A stretch of DNA of 64,000 nt, taken from NCBI GenBank assembly GCA_963707635.1, contig OY970173.1:2464001-2528000 (forward strand). The letters run 5' to 3'. The notes beneath the pieces are model-generated. The model was not told the origin of the DNA. It did not search any database and saw only the letters and a list, made by a program, of their open reading frames with translations. Shown here piece by piece: positions 24,983 through 61,758 of the stretch (position 1 is its first letter; the number at the start of each line of letters is the position of its first letter). Source of the DNA: Candidatus Latescibacterota bacterium. Lineage in GTDB: Bacteria; Krumholzibacteriota; Krumholzibacteriia; WVZY01; JAKEHA01. The position numbers and the translations under genes are program-made.

Positions 24983-25752
24983 CGCGTCCACGTCACCGAG
25001 ACGCCATGGGAGAGACCCATCACCGCGTGGTGGGCCACCCCGGTCGCGACCTCCACACGATCCATCACGATGCGCGCCGCGACGCGCGAGGTATCGGTGC
25101 CGTCGTCGTAGCCTGCGATCAGCCCCAGCCGCGCGTCGGGACGCGCAACCACCGCCACGCCGGCGGCCACCACCCGTGACCCGTCGAAGCGCAGCGACCC
25201 CACGACGGTGGCCATCGCGCCCGCGCGTCCCAGAACCGCGACGGATACCGACGTCGACCGCACGAACGCGCCCGACATCGCTTCGACGTCGGCGACCAGG
25301 GAGACCGGGCCGAGGTCGGCGCGCGAGAACGCGCCGCCTAGCAGCGAGCGCTCGGAGAGGACGCCGCGCAGATCGACTTGCTCGACACCGGCCCGCATCC
25401 CACCCTGCCACACGCCGGCGTGGGCGTGCCCGGCTTCGACCACCACGCGCGTGTGGCCGCCGACCGGCGAATCGATCTGGGCCAGCTCGATCCGGAGCAT
25501 TGCTGGACCGAGCATTGCTGCGGATTGCACGCCGACGACGCGCAGACCGGCGATGCCGAACAGCTCCGCGTCGGCGACCTCGACGCTCCAGCGCCGGGGC
25601 TCGTTCCCTTCGACTGCACCCGGGTAGAGGGCCGTGCGCACCCCCACCGCGCGGTCGACGACACTCGGAAACGTCACCTGCGCGACGGCGGATCCCGCCA
25701 GAAACGCCGAGGCCACTGCGGCGAGCACTCCCCTACTGTCTCCGCGCCGCAC
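24979..25752 (-). CDS. PorV-like small beta-barrel protein (start uncertain)
   Basis: Signal peptide, ELFGIAGL and C-terminal AHHAVMGLSHGVSVTW, similar in style to the barrel at 58356. Confidence 0.55.
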   Translation of the reverse strand: MRRGDSRGVLAAVASAFLAGSAVAQVTFPSVVDRAVGVRTALYPGAVEGNEPRRWSVEVADAELFGIAGLRVVGVQSAAMLGPAMLRIELAQIDSPVGGHTRVVVEAGHAHAGVWQGGMRAGVEQVDLRGVLSERSLLGGAFSRADLGPVSLVADVEAMSGAFVRSTSVSVAVLGRAGAMATVVGSLRFDGSRVVAAGVAVVARPDARLGLIAGYDDGTDTSRVAARIVMDRVEVATGVAHHAVMGLSHGVSVTWTR

Positions 25753-27430
25753 ATCCCACCACCACCTTCTCCACGCCCGCGCGCGTGCCATCGGACAAGA
25801 GCGCCTCGCACGCCACCACGTAGATTCCGGGAGGCACGATCCGTCCCATCGCGTCGCGGCCGTCCCATACCATCAAAGTCGGAAACGCCGAGGCGGCGCC
25901 CAGCTCCGCCACGCGCCGCCCGTCGAGGTCGTAGACGCGCGCCACGACCCGCGCCACCGCTGACCCCGGGTGCATTGCCACCCGAAGCAGTTCGCCCTCG
26001 TGCGGGGCGAACGGGTTGGGCGACGCGTCCACGCCGCCGGCACGGGGCGCGTCGTAGAGCGACGCGGAATTGGCAATGGCCGGTGAGCAACCACTCGCCG
26101 ACGACGAGAGCCGCCACACGGCCGGGCCTTTTCCGACGAAGAGGTCGACGCGCTCGAGGCTGCGACCGGCGAGCGAACTGCCGATGGCGGGATATGCGAC
26201 GGCATCCACCGCGATCCCGAGCGGGTCGAGAACCACGACGCTGTCGGCGACCGCGCCGCCCGAGCGGTTGAACGTCGGCCATGTGCCGGCCACACCGACC
26301 ACGCGGGACGGCGGGGCGGACGGCGCACAGGCGAGCAGGCCCGCGGGATCCGGCGTCACCGCCACCACCGCACCCGGCTCCAGGACGAACACATCCACCG
26401 CGAGCCGCGCGGGCCGGGCGCGCGTATCACGGAGCGAGAAACCGGCGAGGTCGATGGGCACCTCGCCGGCGTTCATCAATTCGACGAACTGGGGGCACCC
26501 GTCGCGCGGCGAGCTCCACACTTCGCTCACCAGGAGCGGAATTCGCGCGGCGCGACGCACCAGCGCCACCGCGTCGTTGGCCGCGCGCTCGTCCGGCCCG
26601 TAGCGCGTGCGGATCGAGAGCCAGTGGTAACCCGGGCCCAGGGCGACGTGCGCGAGCGTCTCAATCGACGCGCCCGGCGCGATGGCGAACGCGTTCGGCG
26701 CGCCGTCGAATGTCGTCGCACCGGCCGACGACGAATCGCGGCCCGAGACCTCCACCGCGCCAGCGGGCACGGGCTCGATGCCGAGGTTCACGATCAGCAG
26801 TCCCAGCCGCTCACGCCCCGGGCCGTCGCGCCCCGCGCGCGACGGAGTTCCGCTCGCGAGTGCGAGCGCCACGTCGTGGCGGGCGACGTTGCGTCTGCCC
26901 GGGGTTGGAAACGCCGCCACGAAGTCCGCGTCGTTGTCGTCGGTATCGACGCCGTCGCCCGCGCGGGCCAGCGACTGCCCGGCCGTCACCGCCCGGGCGG
27001 CCCGGGTCTCGACGTAGGCGTCGTCGTCGAGGCCGCCGTAGCCGACGACATCGAGCGCGGCGCCCGCAGCGTCCACGATCCGAATCGCGTCCGGCCCGTT
27101 CTGTAGCGAGAACGAGCTGACCGCGTCGGGCGGCGGACTCACTAGATCGCCGCCGATCACGAACAGCCCGTCGGCCGCGATCACTCGCCCGGGATCCGCG
27201 CGCCAGATCACCGTCCAGCCGGTCCCGGCGCCGTTGTGGAATTCCAGCGTCAGTCCGGCGATGTCGACCGGCAGCGGCCCGCCGTTGATCAGCTCGACGA
27301 ACTCGTGGCCGGCATCGGCGCCGGGATGGTCATAGTAGAGTTCATTGACGAGGATGCGCGCGGATGCACTTCCCGCGGCGATGCCGTACAGCGCAAACAA
27401 GAGAACGTACCGGAGAGACGAGCAGACCAC
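25733..27430 (-). CDS. Secreted protein with two lamin-tail domains and a C-terminal FlgD-Ig/T9SS-like sorting domain
   Basis: ILVNELYYDHPGADAGHEFVELIN, LLVSEVW...QFVELMN; CTD SPNPFAP...VYDLDGRRV...WDGRDAMGRIVPPGIYVV. Confidence 0.82.
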   Translation of the reverse strand: MVCSSLRYVLLFALYGIAAGSASARILVNELYYDHPGADAGHEFVELINGGPLPVDIAGLTLEFHNGAGTGWTVIWRADPGRVIAADGLFVIGGDLVSPPPDAVSSFSLQNGPDAIRIVDAAGAALDVVGYGGLDDDAYVETRAARAVTAGQSLARAGDGVDTDDNDADFVAAFPTPGRRNVARHDVALALASGTPSRAGRDGPGRERLGLLIVNLGIEPVPAGAVEVSGRDSSSAGATTFDGAPNAFAIAPGASIETLAHVALGPGYHWLSIRTRYGPDERAANDAVALVRRAARIPLLVSEVWSSPRDGCPQFVELMNAGEVPIDLAGFSLRDTRARPARLAVDVFVLEPGAVVAVTPDPAGLLACAPSAPPSRVVGVAGTWPTFNRSGGAVADSVVVLDPLGIAVDAVAYPAIGSSLAGRSLERVDLFVGKGPAVWRLSSSASGCSPAIANSASLYDAPRAGGVDASPNPFAPHEGELLRVAMHPGSAVARVVARVYDLDGRRVAELGAASAFPTLMVWDGRDAMGRIVPPGIYVVACEALLSDGTRAGVEKVVVGCAARRQ

Positions 27431-27606
27431 CCCACCACCTCCACCACCCGAACACCACGCGCATGCTATGAGAACGACGCGCGCGAATCAATTTGCACGT
27501 GGTTCACACCCGGGGTGAACCTTGTGAACGGTGACAAGTCGTTCGCCTGACGACGGAAGGGCGATATATCGCCCGCAAAGGACAGCGACAGGACCCGCGT
27601 GGTTGA

Positions 27607-29793
27607 CTAGATCATGCCGGCGCGTTTGCGCAGGAGCCACTCGCAGGAGAGCAGGGCCAGCACCAGCACGAAAAGGAGCGCGCTGGAGCGCAGCACCGTT
27701 TCGGACGTCGTCGGCACGACGCGCGGCGAAACGTCGAGACGATCGGCCACGTCGGCGGCCTGTTCGAGGTTGAGGTAGGCGCCGCCGGTGCGGCGCGCGA
27801 TGCGCTCGAGCTGCGCCCGATCCTGCTGGGTGCGCTGGAATTCGACCGACGTCTCGGACACACGGATTTCGAGCGCCTTCGACTGGATCGCGCGGTCGGG
27901 CAGTTCCGCGCTTCCGCGCACCGTGTAGCGCCCCGGGGGGAGCGCGTCGAGCGCGACCGAGAGCCGGGTGTCGTCGGGACGCTCGCGGCGCATCGGCGTG
28001 CGGTCGAGCGGGGTTTCCGCTCCGTTCGCGCCGACGCGGGCCACTTCGACCCACACCGGCGCGCCGGTGACCGGCTGGAGTTTTTCGTTGAAGACCTCGG
28101 CGTAGAGCTCCGGCGCCTCGCCGGCGTCGAACACGTTCTTGCTCGCCACCAGCACGAAGCGACCCGATTCCTCCCCGCGCGTGAGCACGTCCAGGAGCCG
28201 GGTCATGAGTTCGTCGTACACACCGTTGCTCTCGGCGACGAACTTCCAGCGCCAGAGCGGCCCGGCCGCGATCGCCGCCACCCGTCCCTTGCCCACGGTC
28301 GCGTAGGCGAGCGCGGGAACGTTGCGCCCGCGGACCCCGACCAGCACCTCGGCGGCCGCCGTCGGCGCGACCCCGGCGTAGAAGCCGAGGAGCGGCGCGC
28401 GTTCCTGCCATTCCGATTGCGACAACAGCGGCACCAGGTCGGCGGTGACTGGGTTGGCAGCGGCCCGCGGGGCCGGACCCACGGACGTGTATTGGAGCGT
28501 GAACGAAAAGGGGGCGCTCCCTGCGACCGGCAACACGCCGGCCAGGCGGCCCCACGCCGCGGGAGTCTCGAACAGCGACGAGGGTCCCGGGAGAACCAGC
28601 AACCCGCCGCCGCGGTCGGAGACGAAGCGCCGGATGGCGTCCGTGACCGGTGCGGAGAGAAAGTCCTCGCTCACCGACGCGAGCACCACCGCGTCGGCGT
28701 CGGCGAGCGCCGCGACGAACTGGTCCGGGCGCCGGGCGCGGCCGATCGGGGCCGCAGGACGCCGGGAGGTGACGAACCACTCGTATTCGAGCGCGGGGTC
28801 ACGGGTGATCAACGAGGTGAGGAAGGAAAGCTCCCAGCCCGGAGTGAGGTCGACGATCAGGATCTTCGCGCGCGCCTTCTCGGCGTCGATCACGACCTCG
28901 CGGCGATTGTTGTCCGGCTCGGCGTCGGCTCCGGCCGCGGAGACGGTGAGCACGAACTCCCGGCGTCCCGCGGCCGCGACATGAACCGGGATGCGCACGG
29001 CGGCTTCGACGGCTCCGGCGGCGAGCGAGGTGTCCGCCTCGAACACGCTGCGTTCCCCTTCCGCGAGGCGCAGGTGGATCCGCTTGGCACGGGAACCGGT
29101 CGAGGCGACGGTTGCCGTAACGATGGCACGCGAGGGGGCCCTTACCACGGGGCTGTACGCGACGCCGGCGATACGCACGTCGTCCGGAGCCAGGGTATCA
29201 CCGACGCCGACGGTCCACACCGGCAAGTCGGGCAGCGGCGCGCGTACCAGCGACGGCTCCGTCTCGACCCCGTCTCCAATCGCGACCACGGCACTGACGT
29301 GTTCGCCTTCGTAGCGCGCGCCCAGTTCCCCCAGCGAGCCGACCAGATCGCTTCCCTGGCCGTCCGGGCGCAGGGTATCGCCCGCCTCGGGCTCGAGGTG
29401 GCCGGCGTAGTGAGCCACGTCGACGCGGGCTCCCCGCGCTTCCAGCCTTCGTCCCAGCTCGGCCGCGGTGCGCTCCGCGGCCGCGAACCGGCTCTCGCCC
29501 GCCTTGCCCCCGCCCGCCGGAAGCGACATGCTGGCGGAACGGTCGACCATCACCACCACACGCGCGGGTTCTTCGCGCTGCCCGGTCAGTATCGACCGGG
29601 GGTCCATCAATAGCATTGCCAGAATCACCAGAGCGAGCACCCGGAGGGTGAGCAGCAGGGACCGCATCCGGCCCGCGAGGACTGGGATCGTCCGCCAGTA
29701 CGCGAACAGGGAGACCGCCACGAGCAGCGCCGCCAGGGCGATTACCCAGGCGCGAACCGCGAGGCCGAGGCTGGCGTTGGTTTCGGAAAGCAT
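27607..29793 (-). CDS. Membrane-anchored VWA protein with Ig-like and GATase-like domains
   Basis: N-terminal TMs, MIDAS-like DRSASM, PDNN, FVSDRGGGLL, GKGRV...LWRW and a C-terminal TM with LSCEWLLRKRAG. Confidence 0.75.
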   Translation of the reverse strand: MLSETNASLGLAVRAWVIALAALLVAVSLFAYWRTIPVLAGRMRSLLLTLRVLALVILAMLLMDPRSILTGQREEPARVVVMVDRSASMSLPAGGGKAGESRFAAAERTAAELGRRLEARGARVDVAHYAGHLEPEAGDTLRPDGQGSDLVGSLGELGARYEGEHVSAVVAIGDGVETEPSLVRAPLPDLPVWTVGVGDTLAPDDVRIAGVAYSPVVRAPSRAIVTATVASTGSRAKRIHLRLAEGERSVFEADTSLAAGAVEAAVRIPVHVAAAGRREFVLTVSAAGADAEPDNNRREVVIDAEKARAKILIVDLTPGWELSFLTSLITRDPALEYEWFVTSRRPAAPIGRARRPDQFVAALADADAVVLASVSEDFLSAPVTDAIRRFVSDRGGGLLVLPGPSSLFETPAAWGRLAGVLPVAGSAPFSFTLQYTSVGPAPRAAANPVTADLVPLLSQSEWQERAPLLGFYAGVAPTAAAEVLVGVRGRNVPALAYATVGKGRVAAIAAGPLWRWKFVAESNGVYDELMTRLLDVLTRGEESGRFVLVASKNVFDAGEAPELYAEVFNEKLQPVTGAPVWVEVARVGANGAETPLDRTPMRRERPDDTRLSVALDALPPGRYTVRGSAELPDRAIQSKALEIRVSETSVEFQRTQQDRAQLERIARRTGGAYLNLEQAADVADRLDVSPRVVPTTSETVLRSSALLFVLVLALLSCEWLLRKRAGMI

Positions 29794-29900: not shown

Positions 29901-30278
29901 TCACGCGGACGTGTCCGCCACTTTGAACGCTCCGATCGCGTCCTGCGTGGTCGGATAGGCTTCCAGAATCGAGTGGAACTCGAGCAGCTGGAAGACCTCG
30001 TGGACGTCGCCGGTCATTCCCGAGAGCTTGAGATCCCCGCCGTGGTTGCGGATGCGCTTGATCTCCCCGATGAAGATGCCCCAGCCCGCGGAGCTGATGT
30101 AGTTCACGCCGGAGAGGTCGACGACAATCTTGAAGAGACTCCGGTCGAGCAGCCCGTAGAGGGCGTTCTCCAGCTCGCCGGCGGTCGTGGTGTCGAGGTA
30201 TCCGCTTACCTTGAGGATCGATACCCCGGCGCTGTTGTTGCCCGAGATGACGCTCACAACGATTCCGTCTACAGACAT
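29901..30278 (-). CDS. STAS anti-anti-sigma factor (RsbV/SpoIIAA-like)
   Basis: SGYLDTTTA, VVDLSGVNYISSAGWG, GGDLKL, VFQLLEF. Confidence 0.92.
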   Translation of the reverse strand: MSVDGIVVSVISGNNSAGVSILKVSGYLDTTTAGELENALYGLLDRSLFKIVVDLSGVNYISSAGWGIFIGEIKRIRNHGGDLKLSGMTGDVHEVFQLLEFHSILEAYPTTQDAIGAFKVADTSA

Positions 30279-30324
30279 CGCACCCTTCCTCATCCGGTTG
30301 TATACCCCGCCGGGGCCGCCGCGG

Positions 30325-30726
30325 CTAGTGCCGGCGACCCGACGGGCCTCCCTGCGGACTCGCGTCGCCTGCCACCGCGAAGTCGCGAATTGCGTCCTCG
30401 GTGCGCTCGAACGGCTTCAGAATATTACCGAACTCGAGCAGGTCGAACACCTCTCGCACCTCGGGCGACATGGCCGCGAGTTTGATGTCACCGCCGTTGC
30501 GCCTGATGCGCTTGATCTCGCTGATGAAGATACCCCAGCCCGCCGAGCTGATGTACGTCACCGCGCCCAGGTTCACGACGATCCGGTAGCAGCTCTCGTC
30601 GACGATCCGGGCCAATGTCTCCTCCAGGCCGGACGCATTGGTGGTCTCGATGGTGCCCCGGAGGGTCAGCACGGAAACCGGGTTCGTCGAGCCGGTACGC
30701 TCTTCAGTAATGACCAGTTTTTCCAT
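30325..30726 (-). CDS. STAS anti-anti-sigma factor (RsbV/SpoIIAA-like)
   Basis: RGTIETTNA, VVNLGAVTYISSAGWG, GGDIKL, VFDLLEF. Confidence 0.92.
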   Translation of the reverse strand: MEKLVITEERTGSTNPVSVLTLRGTIETTNASGLEETLARIVDESCYRIVVNLGAVTYISSAGWGIFISEIKRIRRNGGDIKLAAMSPEVREVFDLLEFGNILKPFERTEDAIRDFAVAGDASPQGGPSGRRH

Positions 30727-30761: not shown

Positions 30762-31880
30762 CTAGTCCAATAGGGCCTTCAATAGAAAATGTATGCCCTG
30801 CCTGTCGTTACCCGACAACTTGAGGTTCTTCTCGGCCTTCCTGAACCCCGGGTTGCGAACCAGAGCGTGCCGGAACGCTTCATGCGCCTTGTCGATGAAG
30901 AGTTTGCATTTTGCGGCATAGAGCACCCCCAGGTCGTTCTGTATGTCCGCATAACCGGGGTTCGATTCAAGCGCGACCTTGAGCCGTTCGATCAGGGCGT
31001 CGATTTCCTGCTCGGTGAGCTCGTCCGCGCGGAACTTGAGCACCAGGTATATCTCCAGCGACAGGTCCGTCCCGGCCGCCGTGTCCAGTTCCTGGCGAAT
31101 CTTGGCCAGGCGTTCGTGCACCACGTCGTATTGCTCGCTCTCGGTGGCACGCACCGCCTCGCGAAAGTCCTCGGTGTCCAGCTGGGGCTTGAGCTGCAGG
31201 TTGAGCTGCAGGACCCGGCTGAGCCGGGGCCGCAGGTCGCGCGAGAGCTCGTAATCCTGCTTGAGGACGACGTTCAGCGTGAGCGCGAGCGCGATGTTCA
31301 GCAGCGCCGACTGATAGTAACGGTTCAGCTCGAGCGCCCGTTCGAACTCGGCCACGGCCTCGCGGCAACGCTCGAGCCGCAGGTAGGCCGTGCCCAGGTC
31401 ATTATGTAGGTCGGCGTAGTCCGGCGCCAGCTCGATTCCTTTCTGAAACGATCGCAAGGCCTTGTCGTGGTCGCCCAGCGCCAGCAGGCAGTTGCCCAGG
31501 ATCGAATAGCCGCTCGCGTCCTCTAGCCCGAGCTTGATCGAGCGAATCACCTCCGCCATCGCCTCGCGGTAGAGCTTCTGGCGGAACAGCGCCTCGCCGA
31601 GCTTGAGGTGGGCGCGGCCGTCGACGTCCTTCTTCAGACGATCGCGCAGGTCGAGCAGGGACATGAGCCGGGACTTGTACTCGTCGTGCACGCGCCGCAC
31701 CAGCGGGCGCAGCGATTCCGGCGTGAGCGAGGGGTCGTAGGCGACCGCGTGGCGCGAGAGCATCGTGCCCTCGTGGAACAGGGACGTCACCACCGTCCGC
31801 TGCGACGCCACCAGGCTCGACTGGACGTAGTACTTCGTCCCGCTCGAAAGAATCTCGCTACGGTGATCGTAGCCTTCCAT
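30762..31880 (-). CDS. TPR-repeat protein with uncharacterised N-terminal domain
   Basis: PDYADLHNDLG, PGYADIQNDLG, ALELN; RBS GAGAGGT before MEGYDH. Confidence 0.85.
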   Translation of the reverse strand: MEGYDHRSEILSSGTKYYVQSSLVASQRTVVTSLFHEGTMLSRHAVAYDPSLTPESLRPLVRRVHDEYKSRLMSLLDLRDRLKKDVDGRAHLKLGEALFRQKLYREAMAEVIRSIKLGLEDASGYSILGNCLLALGDHDKALRSFQKGIELAPDYADLHNDLGTAYLRLERCREAVAEFERALELNRYYQSALLNIALALTLNVVLKQDYELSRDLRPRLSRVLQLNLQLKPQLDTEDFREAVRATESEQYDVVHERLAKIRQELDTAAGTDLSLEIYLVLKFRADELTEQEIDALIERLKVALESNPGYADIQNDLGVLYAAKCKLFIDKAHEAFRHALVRNPGFRKAEKNLKLSGNDRQGIHFLLKALLD

Positions 31881-31907
31881 CGTCGCTACCTCTCTCATCG
31901 CGGTTCC

Positions 31908-31936
31908 ACTATAGCTCGCCCCGCGCGCGCACACAA
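31908..31936 (-). promoter_or_regulatory. Internal sigma70-type promoter candidate
   Basis: TTGTGT-N17-TATAGT upstream of the TPR gene. Confidence 0.4.
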
Positions 31937-31959
31937 GCCGGCCCGGCACCCGCGCGTCT

Positions 31960-32232
31960 TCACGCCACGTCGTCCGGGGTCAGCAGCGTGATCGCGATTC
32001 GAATCAGCTCGTCGCGTGACACCTCGCGCCCGCGCTCGGCCAGCCGGGCCCGCACCGCGTCGATGTGCTTGAGCACGGCGGGTGTGAGCCGCACTACCAC
32101 CTCGACTTCCTTGGCGTCGGGTGAGAGCGGCGAGCGGCCGCGAATCAGCTTCGACACCGTGTCGGAGGCGGCTGCCTCCTTCGCGTCCTCGAACGGGTCG
32201 CGCCCCATCGATCGCTTGCGTCGTTCAGGCAC
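31960..32232 (-). CDS. Small ParA-partner protein, putative ribbon-helix-helix
   Basis: Overlaps the parA stop; basic N-terminus RRKRSMGRDPF; C-terminal VVVRLTPAVLKHID...VSRDELIRIAI. Confidence 0.65.
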   Translation of the reverse strand: MPERRKRSMGRDPFEDAKEAAASDTVSKLIRGRSPLSPDAKEVEVVVRLTPAVLKHIDAVRARLAERGREVSRDELIRIAITLLTPDDVA

Positions 32233-32962
32233 GGGACAACACTTCCTCCGTCAACTGGTAGTAGTCGAACGCCCCGCGCGACATGGGCGAATACTCGAAA
32301 ATGGTCTGGTTAAAGCTCGGTGCCTCGCGCAGCGACGTATTCACCCGGATCACGGTCTTGAAGACGAGATCCTTGAACCGGTCGCGGAGCGTGTCCAGCA
32401 CGTCGATCGACAGTCGGGTGCGCCCGTCGTAGAACGTGGGCAGGATGCCGAGGATCGAGGTCTGGCGCGTCGAATTGTCGTTGATCTCGTCGATGATCTG
32501 CATGGTCTGGCGCGCGCCCGCCTGCGCCAGGTAGTCCATGCTCACCGGGATGATCACCTGGTCGGCGTACACGATCGCGTTGATATTGATGAGATTCACC
32601 GTCGGCGAGCAGTCGCAGATCACGACGTCGCATCCGCGCAGGTTGCGAAGCGCCATGTCGAGACGCCGCTCGCGGCTGGTGCGCGACGCCAGCACCATCT
32701 CGATCTCGGCCAGGTCGCGCCCGCCGGAATCGATGACGAACAGGTTCTGCCGGGCCTCGATCACGTCGACCTCGCCGTACTGGAGCAGGTCGCACAGCGT
32801 GCGCTGCCCCTTCAGGTCGAACGCGATGGCCACGTTGCGCTGTGGGTCGCAGTCGACCACCAGCACCTTCATGCCGCACAGGGCCAGCCCATGGGCGAGG
32901 TTGATGGCGGTGGTCGTCTTCCCGGTTCCGCCCTTGGACGTGATGATGGCGATCTTCCTCAT
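32225..32962 (-). CDS. ParA/Soj-family ATPase (orphan)
   Basis: Deviant Walker A KGGTGKTTT, DCDPQ, ICDCSP, IRVNTSLREAPS. Confidence 0.93.
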   Translation of the reverse strand: MRKIAIITSKGGTGKTTTAINLAHGLALCGMKVLVVDCDPQRNVAIAFDLKGQRTLCDLLQYGEVDVIEARQNLFVIDSGGRDLAEIEMVLASRTSRERRLDMALRNLRGCDVVICDCSPTVNLININAIVYADQVIIPVSMDYLAQAGARQTMQIIDEINDNSTRQTSILGILPTFYDGRTRLSIDVLDTLRDRFKDLVFKTVIRVNTSLREAPSFNQTIFEYSPMSRGAFDYYQLTEEVLSRA

Positions 32963-35900
32963 GCCGCGTCGTCGTCCTCGTCGCCGTCGTCGGCTTGCTC
33001 CTGCTCTGAACCGCCGCGATCGCGCAGCTGCTTGCCGTACTTCTCCCACCCGAGCGCGCGGAGCTTGTGGTCGCGGTCCACGTTTCGGTCTGTCACGGCC
33101 GAGTCGATGTCGAGATCGCCGGGCGTCGCCTCGTCGCCGCCGGCGTCGGCGAACTTGCCGCGGCCGAAGACCGGGGGCTCGTGGGGGGCCTCCGGCGGCG
33201 GACTCCCGTCGCGTGGCGTGCGGATGCTCGGGGCGCTATCCGCCGGTTTCCGGGTCGGCCGGACGGCCGGCGCGTCGGCTGGCCGGCCCGGCAGGGTCGC
33301 CGCACCCGGTCGCTCGCCCAGCACGTCGTCCAGCCCGTCCGCGTGCGTCTCGGGAGCTGCCGGGGCCACCGGCCTGGGCGGCCTGGGCGGCGGGCTGGCG
33401 GCAGGTTCCCCGGGACGCTGCTCGCGCACCGCCGCCACCGCCTCCGCGCGGGTGGCGAAGGCCGAAATGAAGGTCCGAAATTCGAGGCACGCGAACACGT
33501 CGGCCAGGTCGGTCCCCATGCCCGCCAGCGCCACCGCGCCGGTGGCCTCGAACGCGCGCGCGAACTGCCCCCACCCGCTGCTCGAGATGTACTCGACGCG
33601 CGTCAGGTCGAACACGATCGCGCGCGGAGCGCGCGCGAGCTCGCGCGAAAGCTCGTCGGACAAGAGCGACACCGCGGTGGTCTCCACCACGCCCGCGAGC
33701 GTGGCCACGCGCACTCCCTCGTCGCCGTCGCTCCATTCGAGGTCCATCCCCGGCGTGCTCGCGAACGAACGCCCGCGGGCCGTCTCCTCGGCGGCGGCCG
33801 CCGCCGGGGGCTCGTCCGCGATGGGCGCCGCCACGCGCCGGAAATCGTCGATCGCGTCGGCGAACATGTCGAAGGACGCGAGCACGATGTTGAACCCGAG
33901 CATGGTGAACACGTAGTACACGTCGGGGTCCATGCCGAAGAGTTTGATGTCCCCGCCCGCGCGGCGCACCTCGCGCAGGCGCTCGGTGAACACGCCCCAG
34001 CCGCCGCTCGACACGTACTCCACGAACGTCATGTCGACGACGACCCGGTTGCGCCCGCCCGCGAGCACCTGGTCCAGCGCGGCCCGGAGCCGCTCGGCGC
34101 TCACCGTGTCGATGATGCCCTTGAGCTGGAGCACCGCGATCTCTCCGCGTTCGCCGACGGTGGTGGCTTCGATGCGCAGGCTCTGCCATTCCATCGACGC
34201 CCCCGCCGGGGTCCCGCCCGTGTCGATGCCGTGCGACGACGCCATCGTATCGGCGCCCAGGTCGCGCCGGACCGGAGGCGCGCTGACGCGCCGTTGCTCG
34301 GGCGGGAGTGCCAGGTACGCGCGCGCTTCCGCGAGGCCGGGAAACGCACGCAGCACGTCGGCGAACCCGAGCAGCTCGTACACGTCGAACACCTCGGTGG
34401 TCATCCCGCACAGCACGATGTCGCCGCCGTGGTCGCGGAGCCCGCGCACTTCGCCGACGAACAGCCCCCACCCGCCGCTCGACACGTAGGATGTCTCGCC
34501 GAGGTCGACGACGATGCGCAGTGCGCCGGCCACGATCAGGTCATGCAGCTTGCGCTCGAGCGCGGACGAAGACGACGAATCCAGGTGCCCGGCCAGCCGC
34601 ATCTCTGTGATGCCGTCGGACGACGAAACCGCGATGCCCACGCCCTCGACCCGCTCGGTGATCTCGGCCGGGAGCGGCGCGCCGTCCGGCGCGGACGCGG
34701 GGATCGCCGGGGGCGCGACCCCCGGGATCTCGCGCAGGAGGTCGTCGACCAGGTCGCGGCGCGGCGCGGGTATCGGCTCCGCGCCCGGCACCTCGGGCGC
34801 CTCACGCCGCAGGCGGTTGCGGCGCAGGTAGTCGAGGCGGAGGTCTTTGGTATTCAAATTGAGCCGCTTGAGCTCCTCGTACACCATGCGCTCGGAAATG
34901 TGCTGCGACGGGTCACGGTCGCGGTTGTACTCCTCGGTGATGCGCTTGGCACCGAAATCGGGGTTGGCGGCGATGGTGCGGATGATCGCCTTGCGCGCCT
35001 CCAGGCTCACGCGCTTCAAGCTGACGTCGTCGCGCAGGATGTCGTTGCGCAGGCCCCGCTCGCCCATGGTTTCCAGCCGCTTCTTGTACCGGTAGAAGGT
35101 CGCCGGGGAGACCCGCATCTGCTGGCAGGCATCCTTCACACTCATGCCCTGCAACTCGACCATGTCGATCAGCTTCTTGCGAATGTCGAAGAGCACGTCG
35201 TCCGCCGTCATCTTCTCCTTCACCGCCACGACGGTGATGTCGTCGCTCTGCGGGTAATCCAGCGTGAAGCGCTTGATGTCCAGATCCAGCTTGGCGATGA
35301 ATTCCTCGGGCGAGAGGTAGCCGTGGGTCTTCACCATGTCCAGCAGGCGCTCTTCGCCGTACTGCTCGCGGCGCTCGTTCATGGCCTCGGTCACGCCGTC
35401 GGTGTAGATGACGAGCATGTCGTCCTTCTTGAGGCGGACCTTCTCGACGCTGATCGAGCGGCGGAACAGCGATTCGTCCGGCAGGCTGATGCCCACCGGG
35501 AAGCCGCGCGGGTTCAGGAAGAACGTCTCCCGGGTCTCGTGGCGGTAGAGAATCATCGGGTTGTGGCCCGCGCTCGCGTAGCTGATCACGCGGTTCTTGG
35601 AATCCAGAATGACGTAGAACATCGTGACGAACATGCCCTTCTTCATGTCGTCGGTCACGAAGGCGTTCATCTTCGACATCACGTCGCTGGCGTTGCGGTT
35701 GCCGCGGGCCTCCATGCGCAGCGCGGTCCGGATCATGGTCATGACCAGCGAACCCGGCACGCCCTTGCCGGACACGTCGGCGACCACCACCCCGATGGTG
35801 TCGTCGTCGACCTGCACGAAGTCGTAGTAGTCCCCGCCCACCTCGGCCGCGGCCTGGTAGAGCGGCGCGATGTCGTAGCCGCTGATCTGCGGGCGGCGCC

Positions 35901-37215
35901 GCGGGAGCAACGACTGCTGGATCTGCTTCGCGACCTCGATCTCCTTCTGCATCTTCTCCTGCTCGAGAATCGACGTCTGCGCCTTGCGGAACTTCTCGGT
36001 GATCTCGTTGAACACACCGGCGATGGCGCCGATTTCGGCCGGACCCCGGATGTCGAGCTTGCCCTCCAGGTTGCCGTCGCCGATCGCGCGCACGCCGTCG
36101 GTGAGCACCTGGATCGGCCGCACGAAGACCTGCACCAGCCCGATGACGAGCACGAGGCCGACTGCGAAAGTCGCCAGCAGGAGCAGCGACGTCTGCAGCC
36201 GCGTGTCCCGGATGGCGGCGCTCACGGCGTCCTCGTACACGCCGAGGTGGAGCCGCCCGATTTCGAACGAGCGTCCAGCCTCCCCCTCCACCGTCACCGC
36301 CACCGCGACGTCGCGGACGTCCTGATCGCCCTGGCGGTGGCGCGACCACGAGATCGCGCCGTCTTCGAGCAGCAGCTTGCCGGCCGGGGCCTGGTAGGGC
36401 TGGAACACTTCGTCGATCTGTCCGGACGCGCGAATATTGCCGGTCGCGTCAACCAGCCGCACGTAGGCCACCTCGTTCGAGCGCGCGACGAGCTTCGAAA
36501 GCTCCGCGGTCAAGTTCGTCTGCTCGATCGAGAACTCGCTCGGGTCGGTCAGCACGGGGAGGCTTCGACTCCCGAGGCTCTCCGCCAGCCGCCGTTTCTC
36601 GACCCACTGGTTCGCGCGCTGGGCCCCGATGTCGCGCGTCTGCCGGAGGAACACGAATCCCCACAGCACCGCCATCAGCAGGAACAGGCCCCCGCTGGCG
36701 CGCACCATGAACTTGAAGCGGAGCGTGCCGCGCAGCGGCATCTTCTCGGGGAGCACCGCGGCCGAGAACGCCGCCTGGCTGCGCTTGGTCAGGATGAGCT
36801 CGTTGCCCGCGTCGGTGGTGCGGTACTCGACCCCGTCCATCAGGCGGTTGATGAGGAATACGCCGAGCCCGCCCTTGCGCCCGGTCTCGACGTACTGGTC
36901 GAGGTCGGGGTCCTTGACGCTCGAGAAGTCGAAGTTCCGGCCCCGGTCCTTCAGGTGGATGCGCACGCGGCCGGAATCGATCTCGGCCACAACGGTGATA
37001 TCGCCGCCGGCCGTCTCGTACGCGTGCTTGATGATGTTGGTGCAGGCCTCGTCGACGGCGAGCTTGGTGTTCGAGACCTCGCGCGGGCTGAAGCCCGCGT
37101 CCTCGCACACCTCCACCACGAAGTCGCGAACCCGCCCCAGCTGCCCTTCCTCCGCCGCGACCGTGAGGTCGCGGACGTTGGGCTTCCGCTCCAGCATCGC
37201 CGCCGCGCGCGCCAT
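32959..37215 (-). CDS. Multidomain partner-switching protein: RsbW-like kinase, 2TM with periplasmic sensor, HAMP, SpoIIE/PP2C, tandem HTH, three STAS
   Basis: LAVDEACTNIIKHAY, DRG and GGLG (kinase); TMs near 36650-36710 and 36130-36200; VGGDYYD, ADVSGKG, YTDGVTEA and DDIT (PP2C); SVKDACQQMRVSPATFYRY (HTH); three Y(V/I)SSxGWG STAS motifs. Confidence 0.9.
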   Translation of the reverse strand: MARAAAMLERKPNVRDLTVAAEEGQLGRVRDFVVEVCEDAGFSPREVSNTKLAVDEACTNIIKHAYETAGGDITVVAEIDSGRVRIHLKDRGRNFDFSSVKDPDLDQYVETGRKGGLGVFLINRLMDGVEYRTTDAGNELILTKRSQAAFSAAVLPEKMPLRGTLRFKFMVRASGGLFLLMAVLWGFVFLRQTRDIGAQRANQWVEKRRLAESLGSRSLPVLTDPSEFSIEQTNLTAELSKLVARSNEVAYVRLVDATGNIRASGQIDEVFQPYQAPAGKLLLEDGAISWSRHRQGDQDVRDVAVAVTVEGEAGRSFEIGRLHLGVYEDAVSAAIRDTRLQTSLLLLATFAVGLVLVIGLVQVFVRPIQVLTDGVRAIGDGNLEGKLDIRGPAEIGAIAGVFNEITEKFRKAQTSILEQEKMQKEIEVAKQIQQSLLPRRRPQISGYDIAPLYQAAAEVGGDYYDFVQVDDDTIGVVVADVSGKGVPGSLVMTMIRTALRMEARGNRNASDVMSKMNAFVTDDMKKGMFVTMFYVILDSKNRVISYASAGHNPMILYRHETRETFFLNPRGFPVGISLPDESLFRRSISVEKVRLKKDDMLVIYTDGVTEAMNERREQYGEERLLDMVKTHGYLSPEEFIAKLDLDIKRFTLDYPQSDDITVVAVKEKMTADDVLFDIRKKLIDMVELQGMSVKDACQQMRVSPATFYRYKKRLETMGERGLRNDILRDDVSLKRVSLEARKAIIRTIAANPDFGAKRITEEYNRDRDPSQHISERMVYEELKRLNLNTKDLRLDYLRRNRLRREAPEVPGAEPIPAPRRDLVDDLLREIPGVAPPAIPASAPDGAPLPAEITERVEGVGIAVSSSDGITEMRLAGHLDSSSSSALERKLHDLIVAGALRIVVDLGETSYVSSGGWGLFVGEVRGLRDHGGDIVLCGMTTEVFDVYELLGFADVLRAFPGLAEARAYLALPPEQRRVSAPPVRRDLGADTMASSHGIDTGGTPAGASMEWQSLRIEATTVGERGEIAVLQLKGIIDTVSAERLRAALDQVLAGGRNRVVVDMTFVEYVSSGGWGVFTERLREVRRAGGDIKLFGMDPDVYYVFTMLGFNIVLASFDMFADAIDDFRRVAAPIADEPPAAAAAEETARGRSFASTPGMDLEWSDGDEGVRVATLAGVVETTAVSLLSDELSRELARAPRAIVFDLTRVEYISSSGWGQFARAFEATGAVALAGMGTDLADVFACLEFRTFISAFATRAEAVAAVREQRPGEPAASPPPRPPRPVAPAAPETHADGLDDVLGERPGAATLPGRPADAPAVRPTRKPADSAPSIRTPRDGSPPPEAPHEPPVFGRGKFADAGGDEATPGDLDIDSAVTDRNVDRDHKLRALGWEKYGKQLRDRGGSEQEQADDGDEDDDAA

Positions 37216-37217
37216 GG

Positions 37218-39101
37218 CTAGCGCTGCCCCTCGACCTTGCGCACGCGCTCGCGCGCCTCCTCGATGGACCGCTGGACGCTTTCGTTGGTGGGATCGATCT
37301 CGAGGATCTTCTCCCATTCCGCGATCGCCTGCGCGTACTGGTCCCTGGAGAAGAACTGCATGCCGGCCAGGTAGAGCTCGCGCACCCGCGACTTCTCGGC
37401 GTCGGTGAGCGGCGTGGTGCGCCGCTTGGTCAACGCCATGAGTTTCTTGGCGTCGGCGTGGTCGGGCTGCAGAGTCAGGAGCTCGCGCAGGTCGGTCATG
37501 GCGCCCTGGTAGTTGCCAGCGTTGTACTTGGTGAGCGCGTCGTTATACAGCGTGACGATGCGGAGCTTGCGCTGCGAGGCCGCGTAGTCCTGGCTAACCG
37601 ACTCGATCTGCTTGCGGATGCGCGCGATCGACGTGCGGGCATTCGCGTTGTCCGGTTCGTATTGCTGCACGTTGTTCCACTCCGCGATCGCCTCGGTCAG
37701 GCGGCCGTCGCGTTCTAGCTGCTGCGCGCGTTCGGAGTGCGCACGGATCCGCTCGTTGATCTTCGCATTGGTTTGATCCAGGTAGTCGTGGGCGCCCACG
37801 TTGAGCGAATCGATCGCGAGGATCGCGTGCCACTCGGTGCGCGCGCCGATCATGTCGCCCTCGTTGAACAGGTCGAGCCCGCGGGCGAAGCGCGTGCGAA
37901 TCACGGCCTGGTTCCCCAGGTCCCGCACCGCCGCCGCCTGCTGGGCCAGCACCTGCTCGCGCGCCGCGTCGCGGGCCGCGGCCGCCTCCGCGTCGTCGGG
38001 CACGAATTCGAGGACGATCAGCCACTGGTTGAGGGCTCCGGCCCAGTCGTCGCTCGCCTCGAGCGCGCGCGCCTTCTCGCGGTGGGCGTTGATTCGCGTC
38101 TCGAAGGTGCGCTGGATGAGCAGCCGCTCGTCCTCGGCGCGCTGCGCCTCGATCGCCTCGCGCTTCTCGTCGAGGGTCTGGCCGAAGCGGCCGGTGAAGG
38201 TCACGGCCTGGTTCGAACCGCTCTCGTCACGCGAGTAGAATGCATAATCCACGCCGTAGTTGAACGCCCCCACGCCGAGCCCGAACGTGGGCGTGTCGTC
38301 GTCGAATCCGACCCGCAGCGCGACCAGCCGCGAGAACACGTACTCGGCGCCGGCGTGGAAGCGCCCGTCGGCACGCTCCGGGAGATCGTACTGCAGCATG
38401 AGCCGGAGCGCGGACCCGTTGTCGAACCTGCGCGTGTACCCGGCGCCGGCCAGGATGGTTCGATCAACCGTGTCGTCCTCGAGGTCGAGCTTGTACTGGG
38501 CGCCCACGATGTCCTGCAGGTTCACTCCCAGGGAAAGCGATCGCGCCCCGTCGGGTATGTAGCGGAAGCCGATGTCGACGCCGGGCGCCGTGCTGCTGAA
38601 CGGATCCACCTGCTGGCGGCTGATCTTGAAGGTCGCCCCCGCGGCCAGATTCCCGAACATCCACCCGAAATGGCGCTCGGCCGCGTAGGAGATGAGGAAC
38701 TGGCTCTCGCTGGCGTTACCTTCGCCGAGCGGGCGGCTGAACTCGTCGTACAGATCAAAGGTGGTGCCGACGTTCATGTAGCCCACGCCGAATGCGCCCG
38801 CCGAGAGGGTCGGGTAGACGAAGCCGAAGTAGGTATAGCCCGCCCCGGTGAACTCCCCGTAGAGCGGCATGTACATCGCCATGAACTGCATCGACTGCAC
38901 GTTGCGCAACGACGCCGGGTTCCAGTACACCGAGCTGGCGTCGTCGGCGAGGCTCACGAATGCCCCGCCGAGACCGATCCCACGCGACCCGGCGCCCAGC
39001 TTGAACGTGCTCGCGGTGCCGCCGTCCTGCGCGAAGGTGGGCGTCGTCAGCGCGACGAGCGCGGCGAGCAGCGCAACGATCACAACGCTCTGGTTTCTCA
39101 C
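37218..39101 (-). CDS. PorV-like beta-barrel fused to a C-terminal TPR/coiled region
   Basis: GTG start overlapping the upstream stop; signal peptide; GAGSRGIGLGGAFVSLADDASSVYWNPASL; FHAGAEY...LRVG...DYAF; TPRs (AIAEWEKILEIDPTN). Confidence 0.82.
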   Translation of the reverse strand: MRNQSVVIVALLAALVALTTPTFAQDGGTASTFKLGAGSRGIGLGGAFVSLADDASSVYWNPASLRNVQSMQFMAMYMPLYGEFTGAGYTYFGFVYPTLSAGAFGVGYMNVGTTFDLYDEFSRPLGEGNASESQFLISYAAERHFGWMFGNLAAGATFKISRQQVDPFSSTAPGVDIGFRYIPDGARSLSLGVNLQDIVGAQYKLDLEDDTVDRTILAGAGYTRRFDNGSALRLMLQYDLPERADGRFHAGAEYVFSRLVALRVGFDDDTPTFGLGVGAFNYGVDYAFYSRDESGSNQAVTFTGRFGQTLDEKREAIEAQRAEDERLLIQRTFETRINAHREKARALEASDDWAGALNQWLIVLEFVPDDAEAAAARDAAREQVLAQQAAAVRDLGNQAVIRTRFARGLDLFNEGDMIGARTEWHAILAIDSLNVGAHDYLDQTNAKINERIRAHSERAQQLERDGRLTEAIAEWNNVQQYEPDNANARTSIARIRKQIESVSQDYAASQRKLRIVTLYNDALTKYNAGNYQGAMTDLRELLTLQPDHADAKKLMALTKRRTTPLTDAEKSRVRELYLAGMQFFSRDQYAQAIAEWEKILEIDPTNESVQRSIEEARERVRKVEGQR

Positions 39102-42100
39102 TTCGCCACCGCGATTCGGAACTTGGCCGACTTCGAGCCCGCGTTCAGCACGCACACGTAGACGCCGTTGCGCACGACTTCGCCCTGACCGTTGCGGCCG
39201 TCCCAGGTCGTCTCCTGCGGCCCGGCCTGGGCGCGCGCGTCGCCCGAGGGAATCGTCTCTTCGTACACCAGGTCCCCGGTCAGCGCATAGATCTTGAGCG
39301 AGACGTCCGCCGGAGCGTCGAGGAAGTACGCGATTCGCGTCGCCTGCGATCCGGCGCGGAACGGATTCGGATAATTGTGCGTGTACTCCTGGAAGTTCCC
39401 GCTCAACACCACCAGCGATTGCGAGGTGACCTGCCCGTCGAGCGGCTGTCCCTGCGCATCGGTCACCCCGAGCGGGAGCGTCGAGGCCGGGTCTCGAACC
39501 ACCAGGCCACCCGATCGCACTCCCACACGAATCTCCGTCTCGCGCGGCTGCGCGTCCAGATCCAGCGCCACCACCGCGTTGACCGACGCGTTGGGCGCGA
39601 TCGTGCGATCCGCGCCCCCACCCAGGAGCGAGACCACGATCGGGTTGGTGGCGGGACTGGTGACCACGTAGGGCTGCGCACCGCCGAGGTCGATCTGGAG
39701 CCGCGCGAGCGTCGCCCCCACCGAAGCGGCCGAGAGCGGCTGGCCGTTCTTGCCGATCACGGTGATCGCAATGGTGTCGATCTGGGCATCGTTCACGCTG
39801 GGGTCGCTCGCGTTGTACGCGATCTCGACGCCCAGGAGGGTCACGTCGGCCGCGCCCGCGGGCACCACGCCGGTATTGATCCCGAGACTCTGCGACACGT
39901 TGCGCACCGCCACCGCGGCGCCTTCGGTCACCATGGCGATATTCGCGGTCCCGTTCGCCACCTGGGCGGGAAGACCGCTGTTTTCGTCGGCGGGGACGGC
40001 GGAGATCGTCACCGCGATCTGGTCGGGCCCGGACGGCTGCAGCGCGGCGTTGACATCCCACGCCACCGGTGTGCCCACCACGAACGGCTTCGCGACGGTT
40101 TCTCCACCCGCGAGCGTGTACCCGGGCGGGAGGCCGATCGAGAGCTGCCCGCCGGCCGCCACGCCCGCCGCGCCGGCTGCATTGGTCACGTTCGCCGTGA
40201 CCGTGAACGGAACCCCCACGCCGACCGCGTTGTCCGTGGCCTCCGGTGGCGCGGTCACACTCGCCGCCACCGAGAGCGAGGCGCGCGGCACCGTCGTGAC
40301 GGCGACCGTGTCCGCGACGGAAGGCACCGGGTTCTGCGAGTTCTCGTCGATACCCGCGAAGGTCACGACCGCGTCCGCCGCGCTCGCCGGCAGGCCGGGC
40401 GCAATCACGCTATACGTCACCGACAACACGCCGCCAGTTCCGTCGCCAAGGTCCCGCACCGGCCCCCCACTCGTCACGATATACCCCGCGGGCAGTGCCA
40501 GCGTGGCGGTAACGTTGTCCGTCGTCGAGGTCGCGGTCACTGCCGCCCGCAACGAGAAGGTCTGGCCCACGCTCACCGTGTCGTCCACCGCACCCGCCGG
40601 ACTGGTCGCCGACAGGCTCGGAGCCGAGAGCGCGCCGCCCGTCGCCACCGTGATCGACACCTGGTCGTCCGGCTGCGACGAGAATGCCGGCGCCGCCAGA
40701 TTGACGTCGTCAGGCGTGGTCGTGAGCGTGCATGTGAAAGCGACGGCCGCCTGCGGCGCCGCCGGCGCGGTCACCGTCCAGTCGATCGCAACGCCCGCGC
40801 TAAACGCCTGCACGGGCGATTCCAGCACCGAGAACCCGGACGGGCTCGTCAGCTTCACGTCAGCCGCACCGGCGAGGCTCGCCTGACCCGCGTTCGTCAC
40901 CAGGCCCGTCACCGTGAAGGTCTGATTCGGGCTCACCACCCCGCCTACGGCGGAGCTGGTCAGCGACAACACCAGGTCGGCGCGTCGCTGCGTCACCACC
41001 AGGTAGGTGTTGTCGACCGGGGGCTGCGGAATCACCGGCTGCCCGGAGTTGTGCGACACCACCCCGGATAGGATCGAGGAAGTGAACGTCTCGAGCGCCG
41101 CGGGCGCCGCCGGTGCGGTCACGCGGAACACGAAGGTGTGGCTCTCGTCCACGGCGATCGACTGGCGGCGCAGGCTCGCGGGCGCGACGCTCGACGCGCC
41201 GTCCTTGGCCAGCGACACCCGCACACTGTCCACGTCCTCGCCGCTGTTCTGGACGGTCACGTGGATCTCGTACGCGAAGCCGGTATTGACCGTGTCGCGA
41301 TTGGCGGTCGCGTGGTTGAAGGTCCCGAAGCCGGTAGTCGCGAGAATCGCGAGGCCGGCGACCTCCTGCACGCGCACGGTGGTGGCCCCGGCGTCGGAGA
41401 GTGCGATCGTCGGGTCGTTGCGGTCGTTGCCGCGCGCCCCCAGTGCGATGTCGACCAGCCCGGTGTCGCTCCCGGTCACGATCACGCTGTATACGAGCGA
41501 GTCCACCGCGCCTCCCGGCAGGCGCCAGGCCGGCGCGCCCGAGCCGAACGCCGTCGGCGGCTGAACCACGTAGTCGATCTTCGTGGCTCCCGCGATGGAG
41601 AAGGCGACGTCGGCCGCGACCGGCGGCGTCAGGTCCGCGCTCGCCTGTCCCGTATTCCGGAGCGCCACGACGATGTTCCACGGGTTCGACTGTCCCTGGG
41701 TCACGGACGCCTGCGACGGCCGCACGCTGGTGATGTCGAGCACCGCCGGCGACTGGATCGCGACGGGTGCAGTCGCATCGAGGGGAGGATTGTTCAGCGC
41801 CACGAGGTTGCTCTGCGCCGAGTTCTCGTCAACGGCGGATACGAGCGTGGTCGTGAAGGTCTCCAGCGTCGACGACGTCGCCGACGCCGTCACCGGCCAG
41901 GCGTACGCCACGGTCTGCCCGGCGGCGACCTCCGCGATCGGAGACACCGGCTGTATCGTGCTGAGCCCATCCGTCGCCATGCCGACCACGACGTCGCGCG
42001 CGTCCGCCTGACCGGTGTTCTGCACCTGCAGGATCACGTCGAAGGCCTGGCTTTCGTTCACGGCGACCGGATTCGGGGCCGCGACGGTCGTGGTGGTGAT

Positions 42101-53668: not shown

Positions 53669-53740
53669 TTTTCGAACGGGCGTGCTCGACTTCCTGGGAC
53701 GGCGGCCGGCTGGACCGGGCGGAGAACCCATATCGACGCG

Positions 53741-53756
53741 TGCAACTCCCATGCCC
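53741..53756 (-). promoter_or_regulatory. sigma54 promoter candidate for the giant-protein locus
   Basis: Minus strand GGGCAT-GGGAG-TTGCA has the GG-N10-GC spacing, about 75 nt upstream of the likely ATG. Confidence 0.55.
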
Positions 53757-54022
53757 CACCAGCGGTTCCCCATTTCGGGGCATGACTACCCCGGGCTGGA
53801 GTCGGACTCAATCGGCGGGAACTCCAGCACCGACGCGAGCCGGGATTCCCGGGATGGTAGCAGCCGGAGGCGGAATAGGCAATCCCCGCAAGGGATTAGC
53901 CGGGACGACGGGGAACTGGCGGGAAGGGTGCCAGGGGGCGACCCGACACGGGTCGCTTGACCCAGGCGGCCGGGGCCAGGCCAACGGTTCGTGGCGGGGT
54001 GGACGGGCGGTTTGCCCCGTCG

Positions 54023-54831: not shown

Positions 54832-54842
54832 CGCCTTCGCTT

Positions 54843-60834: not shown

Positions 60835-60843
60835 TTCGCTACC

Positions 60844-61722: not shown

Positions 61723-61758
61723 GCGTGCGTCGCGGGCCGGGCGGGCCGCCGGAGGGTC

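Follow-up and report, generated by a model that had tools for sequence, protein, structure and literature searches.

The stretch analysed here (the window) is 64,000 nucleotides of the genome of Candidatus Latescibacterota bacterium (GCA_963707635.1, contig OY970173.1, positions 2,464,001 to 2,528,000). On its minus strand lies a gene for a membrane partner-switch protein that carries, directly behind its phosphatase domain, a tandem helix-turn-helix (HTH) module resembling the N-terminus of IS481-family transposases. An initial annotation had assigned a transposase-type bipartite HTH to positions 34820-35190, which correspond to residues about 710-833 of the host protein, and the peptides it quoted were located within the open reading frame (ORF) 32959..37317 (minus strand, 1452 aa). 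Residues are counted from base 37317 of this ORF. The database gene call (P0002) is 1418 aa long, which places the start at residue 35 (window position 37215), two bases past the stop codon of the upstream gene. The domain order of the protein is RsbW-like kinase, two transmembrane (TM) helices, HAMP, PP2C phosphatase, HTH module and three STAS domains:

32959..37215, minus strand: gene of the host, a membrane partner-switch protein of 1418 aa when read from its likely start codon
36784..37158, minus strand: RsbW-like serine kinase domain (HATPase_c_2), residues 54-178, motifs intact (Pfam)
36124..36708, minus strand: TM1, periplasmic domain and TM2 (hydropathy; PF17203 in homologues)
35995..36129, minus strand: HAMP domain, residues 397-441 (Pfam)
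35218..35808, minus strand: SpoIIE/PP2C phosphatase, residues 504-700, metal-binding aspartates conserved (Pfam)
34813..35211, minus strand: IS481-like module (HTH1, linker, HTH2, extension helix), residues 703-835 (NF033577, AlphaFold2, hhalign)
35044..35184, minus strand: HTH1, residues 712-758, recognition helix basic and transposase-like (Pfam, alignment)
34852..35004, minus strand: HTH2, residues 772-822, recognition helix acidic at 814-815 (alignment, AlphaFold2)
34819..34851, minus strand: extension helix, residues 823-833, with a near-invariant R827 common to one IS481 subgroup (AlphaFold2, alignment)
33424..34647, minus strand: three fused STAS domains, with the serine motif in each (Pfam)

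Hydropathy placed the two TM segments near residues 204-225 and from residue 373, and the periplasmic domain between them is a sCache_3_2 domain (PF17203) in some homologues. Only 2 residues separate the end of the PP2C domain from the start of the module. The features of partner switching are present, with the N and G boxes of the RsbW-type kinase intact, the metal aspartates of the PP2C domain in place and the phospho-acceptor serine motif in the STAS domains, and given their conservation the switch is probably active. By its domain content the host is a membrane kinase/phosphatase signalling protein common to several uncultured bacterial phyla. A short conserved motif also occurs near its C-terminus, after a variable linker (residues 1405-1440, window about 33000-33100).

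Kinase, PP2C phosphatase and STAS domains likewise share one chain in Rv1364c of Mycobacterium tuberculosis, a PAS-PP2C-kinase-STAS protein that regulates sigmaF (PMC9138534). Unlike Rv1364c as described there, the host has two TM helices, a HAMP domain, the kinase in first position, three STAS domains and the HTH module, and it has no PAS domain and no neighbouring sigma gene. SypE, of the SypE/SypA pair of Vibrio fischeri, also combines an N-terminal Ser kinase with a C-terminal PP2C domain acting on a STAS protein, at a surface-attachment locus, but it has a central REC domain that the host lacks, and the available part of that source describes it without mention of TM, HAMP or HTH (PMC10120452). 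By analogy the host protein appears to work like Rv1364c and SypE but is neither.

A transposase-like module without transposase catalytic parts

The module matches Pfam HTH_29, HTH_28 and HTH_23 above their cut-offs over residues 712-758, while HTH_32 extends weakly over both units (E 3.7e-4, below cut-off). The NCBIfam model of IS481 transposases (NF033577) is matched from position 2 to 109 of 284 with E 3.7e-15 (56 bits, under the whole-protein cut-off of 224), against E 1e-6 to 3e-6 for the much weaker matches to IS630, ISNCY and IS3 models. In hhalign the module was aligned with an IS481 transposase at 97.2% over 104 columns with 28% identity. The two comparisons uphold the bipartite transposase-type HTH assigned initially and narrow it to IS481.

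No rve/DDE domain was matched across the 1452-aa ORF (Pfam, E 0.05), and the NF033577 match stops at position 109. Real elements of the IS481 subgroup that bears the extension do show terminal inverted repeats; here no long flanking inverted repeat was found, the longest arms being 17 nt at 88% and lying inside coding sequence, and 34301-35700 contains no end box of the kind seen in the nearest IS481 subgroup, with up to 3 mismatches allowed. The initial statements that DDE domain and terminal repeats are absent, and that the module is in frame within the switch-protein ORF, are thus confirmed. Codon use of the module is native to the genome, with a GC content at third codon positions (GC3) of 0.917 and a codon adaptation index (CAI) of 0.75 compared with a genome median of 0.735. 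The module has no second copy in the genome, and no IS481 match was obtained in the host genome at E 1e-30. Identity of the segment as an insertion sequence (IS) was rejected, since it lacks DDE and terminal repeats and occupies, as a single copy, a fixed syntenic locus.

AlphaFold2, run with a 29-row alignment, predicted two three-helix units followed by a C-terminal helix (pLDDT 88, pTM 0.50). A model of PP2C plus module, built from 26 sequences, reached pLDDT 72 and pTM 0.62 and does not settle the packing of the domains, and a homodimer prediction for the module scored 0.00 against a mark of 0.42, which counts neither way. A sequence search of the PDB gave the TetR-like protein Lin0861 as its sole match. 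Foldseek returned no match to the module model at E 0.001, its list including Pax5, Prd, Pax6, Tc3 and SETMAR at E 0.08 or worse; bipartite DNA-binding domains, those of Pax/Prd, TnsB, Tc3, IstA and MuA, are among the best fold neighbours, though no single match is significant. The best VIA-align match was TnsB (Z 6.6, with 122 residues superposed at rmsd 12.3), a level that common helical arrangements also reach, and the ESM Atlas gave only HTH and transposase-fragment clusters (0.85-0.86), which are a lead only.

Conservation and origin of the module

Retention of the module was assessed in 208 genomes whose record titles name Krumholzibacteriota or Latescibacterota. The module was matched in 101 of them and the orthologous HAMP-phosphatase (E 1e-60) in 90, all of which are among the 101; no phosphatase orthologue without the module was found in this sample, and across orthologues the module sits at one syntenic locus. 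The remaining 11 genomes comprise one with the module at a contig end (G076) and 10 with weak matches only. The phosphatase occurs in 0/91 genomes of family f9, and therefore the gene as a whole is patchy in the phylum. Isolated irregularities were seen: the module of G195 is read in two frames, and in G200, where it is apparently split, and G201, where the gene is isolated, the scaffolds contain N runs and assembly effects are likely. Two stops lie within the module of G204.

Among 98 full-length homologues, whose retrieval used a query containing the module and which are for that reason secondary to the phylum-genome module and phosphatase scans as a test of retention, HTH1, linker and HTH2 are gap-free. 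HTH1 has a median identity of 0.755 to the query, higher than that of the kinase (0.70) and all three STAS domains (0.54, 0.73 and 0.43), with 0.59 for HTH2, 0.84 for PP2C and 0.47 for the periplasmic domain. Purifying selection is evident from a median dN/dS of 0.166 for the module (range 0.055-0.339; Nei-Gojobori, 21 non-independent pairs of 7 close relatives); by part, HTH1 and PP2C have medians of 0.13 each, HTH2 plus extension has 0.19, the kinase 0.21 and the periplasmic domain 0.40. The assembly frameshifts nearby, which lie in the giant adhesin gene, might raise the suspicion that an IS inserted here only recently, that the segment is the remnant of a decaying element, or that the assembly is chimeric. 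The identical position in 90/90 orthologues refutes this, and the gap-free alignment, the dN/dS of 0.17, the native codon use, the single copy and the lack of an IS481 match in the genome all speak against it, so that it is almost certainly wrong.

The family extends beyond the phylum. Relatives carry the labels Gemmatimonadota, Zixibacteria, Eisenbacteria, Calditrichota, KSB1 and Goldbacteria, and the module profile matched 46/201 genomes sampled from the phylum of the Eisenbacteria record and 6/201 from that of the Gemmatimonadota record. Among 304 family proteins that were fetched and have their phosphatase end complete, a set biased by its retrieval, the module is strong in 293, weak in 11 and lacking in 0. 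One record titled Patescibacteria (L097) holds a full Krumholzibacteriota-type operon, possibly through a binning or labelling error.

A profile search of 1.84 billion representatives yielded 2713 matches at E 0.001. The best 150 of these 2713 include 71 members of the phosphatase family and 35 membrane GT2 glycosyltransferases that carry the module twice at the N-terminus; the others are 21 repeated N-terminal matches (mostly GT2-type fragments, with 2 other repeat proteins), 1 STAS-bearing fragment and 22 unassigned. Probes for rve had no match among the same best 150. The named GT2 members are mostly from Patescibacteria and have long variable C-termini (P0161, P0199, P0206 and relatives). 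Three proteins of the GT2 family bear a MerR/HTH_17-type domain and have no IS481-type HTH match, which suggests that one DNA-binding domain can replace another in this family. A separate protein of 487 aa (P0219) consists of about five repeats of the HTH2-plus-extension unit.

Several observations point to the donor. On plasmids, the matches whose feature has a name are either IS481 transposases or HTH proteins, and among the weak matches in the phylum, 17 fetched of 19, rve/rve_3 was found in 12 and HTH_32 in 14. One IS481 subgroup extends past HTH2 by a helix that aligns with residues 821-830, and R827 is present in 96% of 47 family modules, in 10/10 transposases of this subgroup and in 4/20 other IS481 transposases; as the subgroup was defined by a pattern over 816-821, only positions 823 and 827 are independent of that definition. 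The extra C-terminal helix therefore points to one IS481 subgroup as donor, although nesting is not shown by the trees. These unrooted trees (126 columns), which sampled 30 of the family's 47 modules, 20 from glycosyltransferases and 30 or 29 transposases, united the family modules as one clade with support 97-98, and drew the extension subgroup nearest to the fused modules in one of the two, at support 66. The fused modules are placed next to the 30 sampled transposases and not among them (support 85-89, not starred), which weighs against derivation from them. Donor and direction of capture are inferred from motif and distribution, not from phylogeny.

The same tree position, with the fused modules on their own side, is what would be expected if the module were not transposon-derived but an old cellular tandem HTH, related by common descent to the IS481 N-terminus or itself the donor to that subgroup, and the best 150 profile matches, with their 71 phosphatase-family proteins and 35 glycosyltransferase fusions and no rve-bearing protein, would fit it too. 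Such an origin is nevertheless judged very improbable: the match covers the whole IS481 N-terminal region in order, including the subgroup-specific extension (R827, 10/10 versus 4/20), and the fused forms occur in few lineages, at positions that are fixed within unrelated host proteins, whereas the transposases are widespread. The module was very probably domesticated from a transposase, and a single capture from an IS481-family transposase, long ago, is likely from the sequence comparisons. The domestication proposed initially is well supported because the HTH is in frame, lacks a catalytic domain and ends, is conserved among orthologues and is under purifying selection; its direction is the inferred part.

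Transposase DNA-binding domains domesticated into host regulators are well known in eukaryotes, and the paired domain of Pax proteins is derived from Tc1/mariner. Like these, the module is a bipartite transposase HTH kept in a host protein; unlike Pax and SETMAR it is bacterial, has an IS481 donor and is membrane-bound and joined to a Ser kinase and a phosphatase, and its DNA binding is a prediction. SETMAR is a domesticated transposase DNA-binding domain of eukaryotes (PMC2847698). With the extension subgroup of IS481 the module shares the N-terminal HTH-linker-HTH, the following helix and R827, and differs in lacking DDE/rve and terminal repeats, in its single fixed locus inside a host protein and in an acidic HTH2 helix; background on IS481 is given in PMC10045372. 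Literature searches found no described bacterial domestication from IS481 and no paper on this protein family, with most subscription papers outside their reach.

DNA binding or protein docking

DNA binding is predicted because the HTH1 recognition helix is basic and transposase-like, the module is basic (median net charge +6) and the fold neighbours include bipartite DNA-binding domains. In the 98 homologues S737, T740 and Y742 of this helix are invariant, and in 47 divergent members S737 is kept in 85%, an aromatic residue at 741 in 98%, Y742 in 83% and K/R743 in 92%; the helix has a median charge of +3 in the family compared with +2.5 in transposases. The host has a TM region together with a DNA-binding domain, each of them predicted, the two features by which transmembrane transcription regulators are defined in PMC10269533. 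SpoIIE has 0 occurrences in 9 supplementary files of that survey, where HTH_28 is listed in 10 and HTH_29 in 13 proteins. We consider the chance that the module binds DNA sequence-selectively to be somewhat better than even. A DNA-binding output of a membrane switch, with the module captured once from an IS481 transposase, is the best explanation by an assessment just above an even chance.

In this mechanism the periplasmic domain would sense an envelope or surface cue, and the HAMP domain and coiled coil would balance phosphatase against kinase activity on the STAS serines. HAMP proteins and RsbU-type phosphatases dimerise, and the protein would do likewise and so present two modules, whose access to DNA would be governed by the state of the switch. 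The result would be a transmembrane transcription regulator without need for a cognate sigma factor. Its target might be the leader of the adhesin operon itself, which is the least certain step.

A number of results weigh against this mechanism. In 20 leaders no shared operator motif stood clearly above controls, the best Gibbs scores being 183/214/260 versus about 171/195/227 in controls, with sites that were scattered and fell in part within coding DNA. None of these 20 leaders contained the IS481 end box at up to 2 mismatches. In the HTH2 recognition helix E/D at 814 is followed by E at 815 (81%); the corresponding pair in transposases is R, C or G and then a hydrophobic residue. Residues 738-740 are variable in KSB1 and Calditrichota. 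Eleven Goldbacteria-type proteins no longer have the recognition motif of HTH1 but still carry HTH2 and its extension, and HTH2 plus extension occurs alone on a downstream STAS protein, clearly in L139, L142 and L146 and weakly in L144, L145 and L147. The stops in the module of G204 belong here as well. The Goldbacteria-type orthologues (P0383-P0394) are about 775 aa long, and in the clear half-module STAS proteins (L139:12001-12684, L142:12222-12908, L146:8441-9607) the HTH2-plus-extension unit is at the C-terminal end.

Part of this evidence would be accounted for if the module were domesticated but served mainly for protein docking, HTH2 and its extension making contact with the STAS substrate, with the enzyme domains or with some other product of the operon. 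The acidic turn of the HTH2 helix, the retention of that half in the Goldbacteria-type proteins and its occurrence alone on downstream STAS proteins (3 loci clear and 3 weak) are in keeping with docking, as is the ranking of L816, R818, L821 and R827 among the most conserved positions across phyla (89-98%). A precedent is RodZ, like the host a membrane protein with a cytoplasmic HTH, whose single XRE-type HTH binds MreB and not DNA (PMC6946637); it is a precedent for docking, not a homologue. However, in Krumholzibacteriota HTH1 is more strongly conserved than HTH2, and its recognition helix is invariant, basic and transposase-like, and R827 is equally conserved in active transposases (10/10), so that it may be structural. 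In family f5 the switch has no fused STAS, yet its free STAS proteins are short (130-192 aa stop to stop) and have no such tail. Docking as the main function is considered less likely than not, but it is a serious alternative. The two halves may also have split roles, HTH1 acting on DNA and HTH2 on protein.

The operon and the meaning of the module

The switch gene belongs to an operon that begins, on the same strand, with a giant surface protein:

53742..53755, minus strand: sigma54-type -24/-12 promoter element of the operon (pattern scan of leaders)
39098..53773, minus strand: giant Ig-repeat protein with FlgD-type C-terminus (type IX secretion system (T9SS)-type adhesin), in several frames (profiles)
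37218..39200, minus strand: PorV/PorQ-family barrel with TPRs, start approximate (NF033709, 91.6 bits versus a cut-off of 90)
32225..32962, minus strand: ParA-family ATPase, its ATG overlapping the host stop codon, absent at 8 related loci (Pfam)
31960..32232, minus strand: 90-aa protein with a weak RHH match (E 0.03), only in the two closest families
30762..31949, minus strand: TPR protein (Pfam)
29901..30726, minus strand: two stand-alone STAS proteins, likely substrates (Pfam and NCBIfam-type profiles)
25733..29793, minus strand: 728-aa membrane protein and LTD/FlgD protein, conserved operon tail (profiles, synteny)

The gene order giant Ig-repeat protein, PorV-like/TPR protein, switch is present in 19/20 loci, the twentieth lying in a scaffold with N runs, and is also found in other phyla. 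The giant gene is in at least five frames here and in one ORF in L151-L153, L155, L158, L160, L166 and L168, with some other relatives also split; sequencing indels are the likely cause of the frame breaks. Upstream, 54023-63960 (minus strand) holds ppdK, a CDP-alcohol phosphatidyltransferase, DUF4388, unknown genes and CBM48-type genes, in an order conserved in many relatives. A GAF-GGDEF diguanylate cyclase follows the STAS gene in two loci (L144:10704-11735 and L147:10559-11593), an arrangement reminiscent of SiaABCD-type coupling to c-di-GMP.

A parA gene lies directly downstream of the switch gene in 15/20 loci, with stop and start codons overlapping. This arrangement, the basic character of the module and the failure to find an operator in 20 leaders would suit non-specific DNA binding by the module, which with the adjacent ParA-type ATPase would tether or position the receptor, and perhaps the adhesin export site as well, relative to the nucleoid. 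Such a tether had been proposed initially, and as a general role it is not supported, since eight loci keep the module with no parA downstream (L031-L034, L129, L139, L142 and L146). The invariant residues of the recognition helix also fit a defined target better than a generic tether, and we regard this role as improbable. L031-L034 and L146 additionally lack the fused STAS domains, and other relatives end in TPRs. With STAS/TPR ends variable and parA present in some loci only, the constant core is therefore kinase-sensor-HAMP-PP2C-module.

A sigma54-type -24/-12 element, called with a consensus that we take to be the standard one, lies upstream of the giant gene in 20/20 leaders, compared with a mean of 0.2 and a maximum of 2 in shuffles; the pattern was read off the same 20 leaders, L159 of the 21 regions being excluded because its upstream boundary is undefined. 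In a test outside this set, two loci of other phyla have the pattern some 75-110 nt ahead of the giant ORF, and a third has it only about 700 nt away. The genome encodes sigma54 and 14 strong Sigma54_activat (enhancer-binding-protein) matches, and the syp genes of Vibrio fischeri are reportedly sigma54-dependent, going by the title of a reference. The leader 53750-53960, named initially for binding assays with the isolated domain, contains the conserved sigma54-type promoter, and nothing so far ties the module to it. In 13/20 leaders a sigma70-like element was noted 120-280 nt further upstream of the sigma54-type element, in a count without control, and a sigma70 consensus scan of the operon leader found nothing. 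A pattern taken to be IHF-like, likewise without control, was seen in 5/20 leaders and was not used.

A canonical RsbU-V-W-sigma module includes a cognate sigma gene at the locus; here none of the 18 Sigma70_r2 matches of the genome falls within the window, and a target may be encoded elsewhere. A sigma-independent output through DNA binding, also suggested initially, is plausible on this ground, although the 20 leaders yielded no operator motif. Elsewhere in the genome, G000:C1:17715-19066 brings together genes for an RsbW-like protein, a STAS protein and a sigma70-family factor, a canonical-looking partner-switch locus and possible cross-target.

The module is real, ancient, under selection and transposase-like, in a bacterial signalling family, and its function is predicted. 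A wider proposal, held tentatively and below an even chance, makes it the bacterial equivalent of Pax and SETMAR: the region with which one IS481 subgroup binds its ends would have been captured before several FCB-related phyla diverged and then become a reusable regulatory domain, employed in the kinase/phosphatase switches of the membrane, as a half module on their STAS partners and in two copies on glycosyltransferases of Patescibacteria. In the present protein, partner switching would acquire an output that acts on DNA directly at the membrane, independently of sigma factors, and controls a sigma54-driven giant adhesin operon.

The case is old, spread over several phyla and under measurable selection. 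The hosts are uncultured, and the module is compact (133 residues), basic and confidently folded in prediction. If it binds DNA, partner-switching circuits, which are normally read out via a sigma factor, would gain a new output, and the module would offer a first handle on how uncultured FCB-related phyla control their giant T9SS-type surface proteins.

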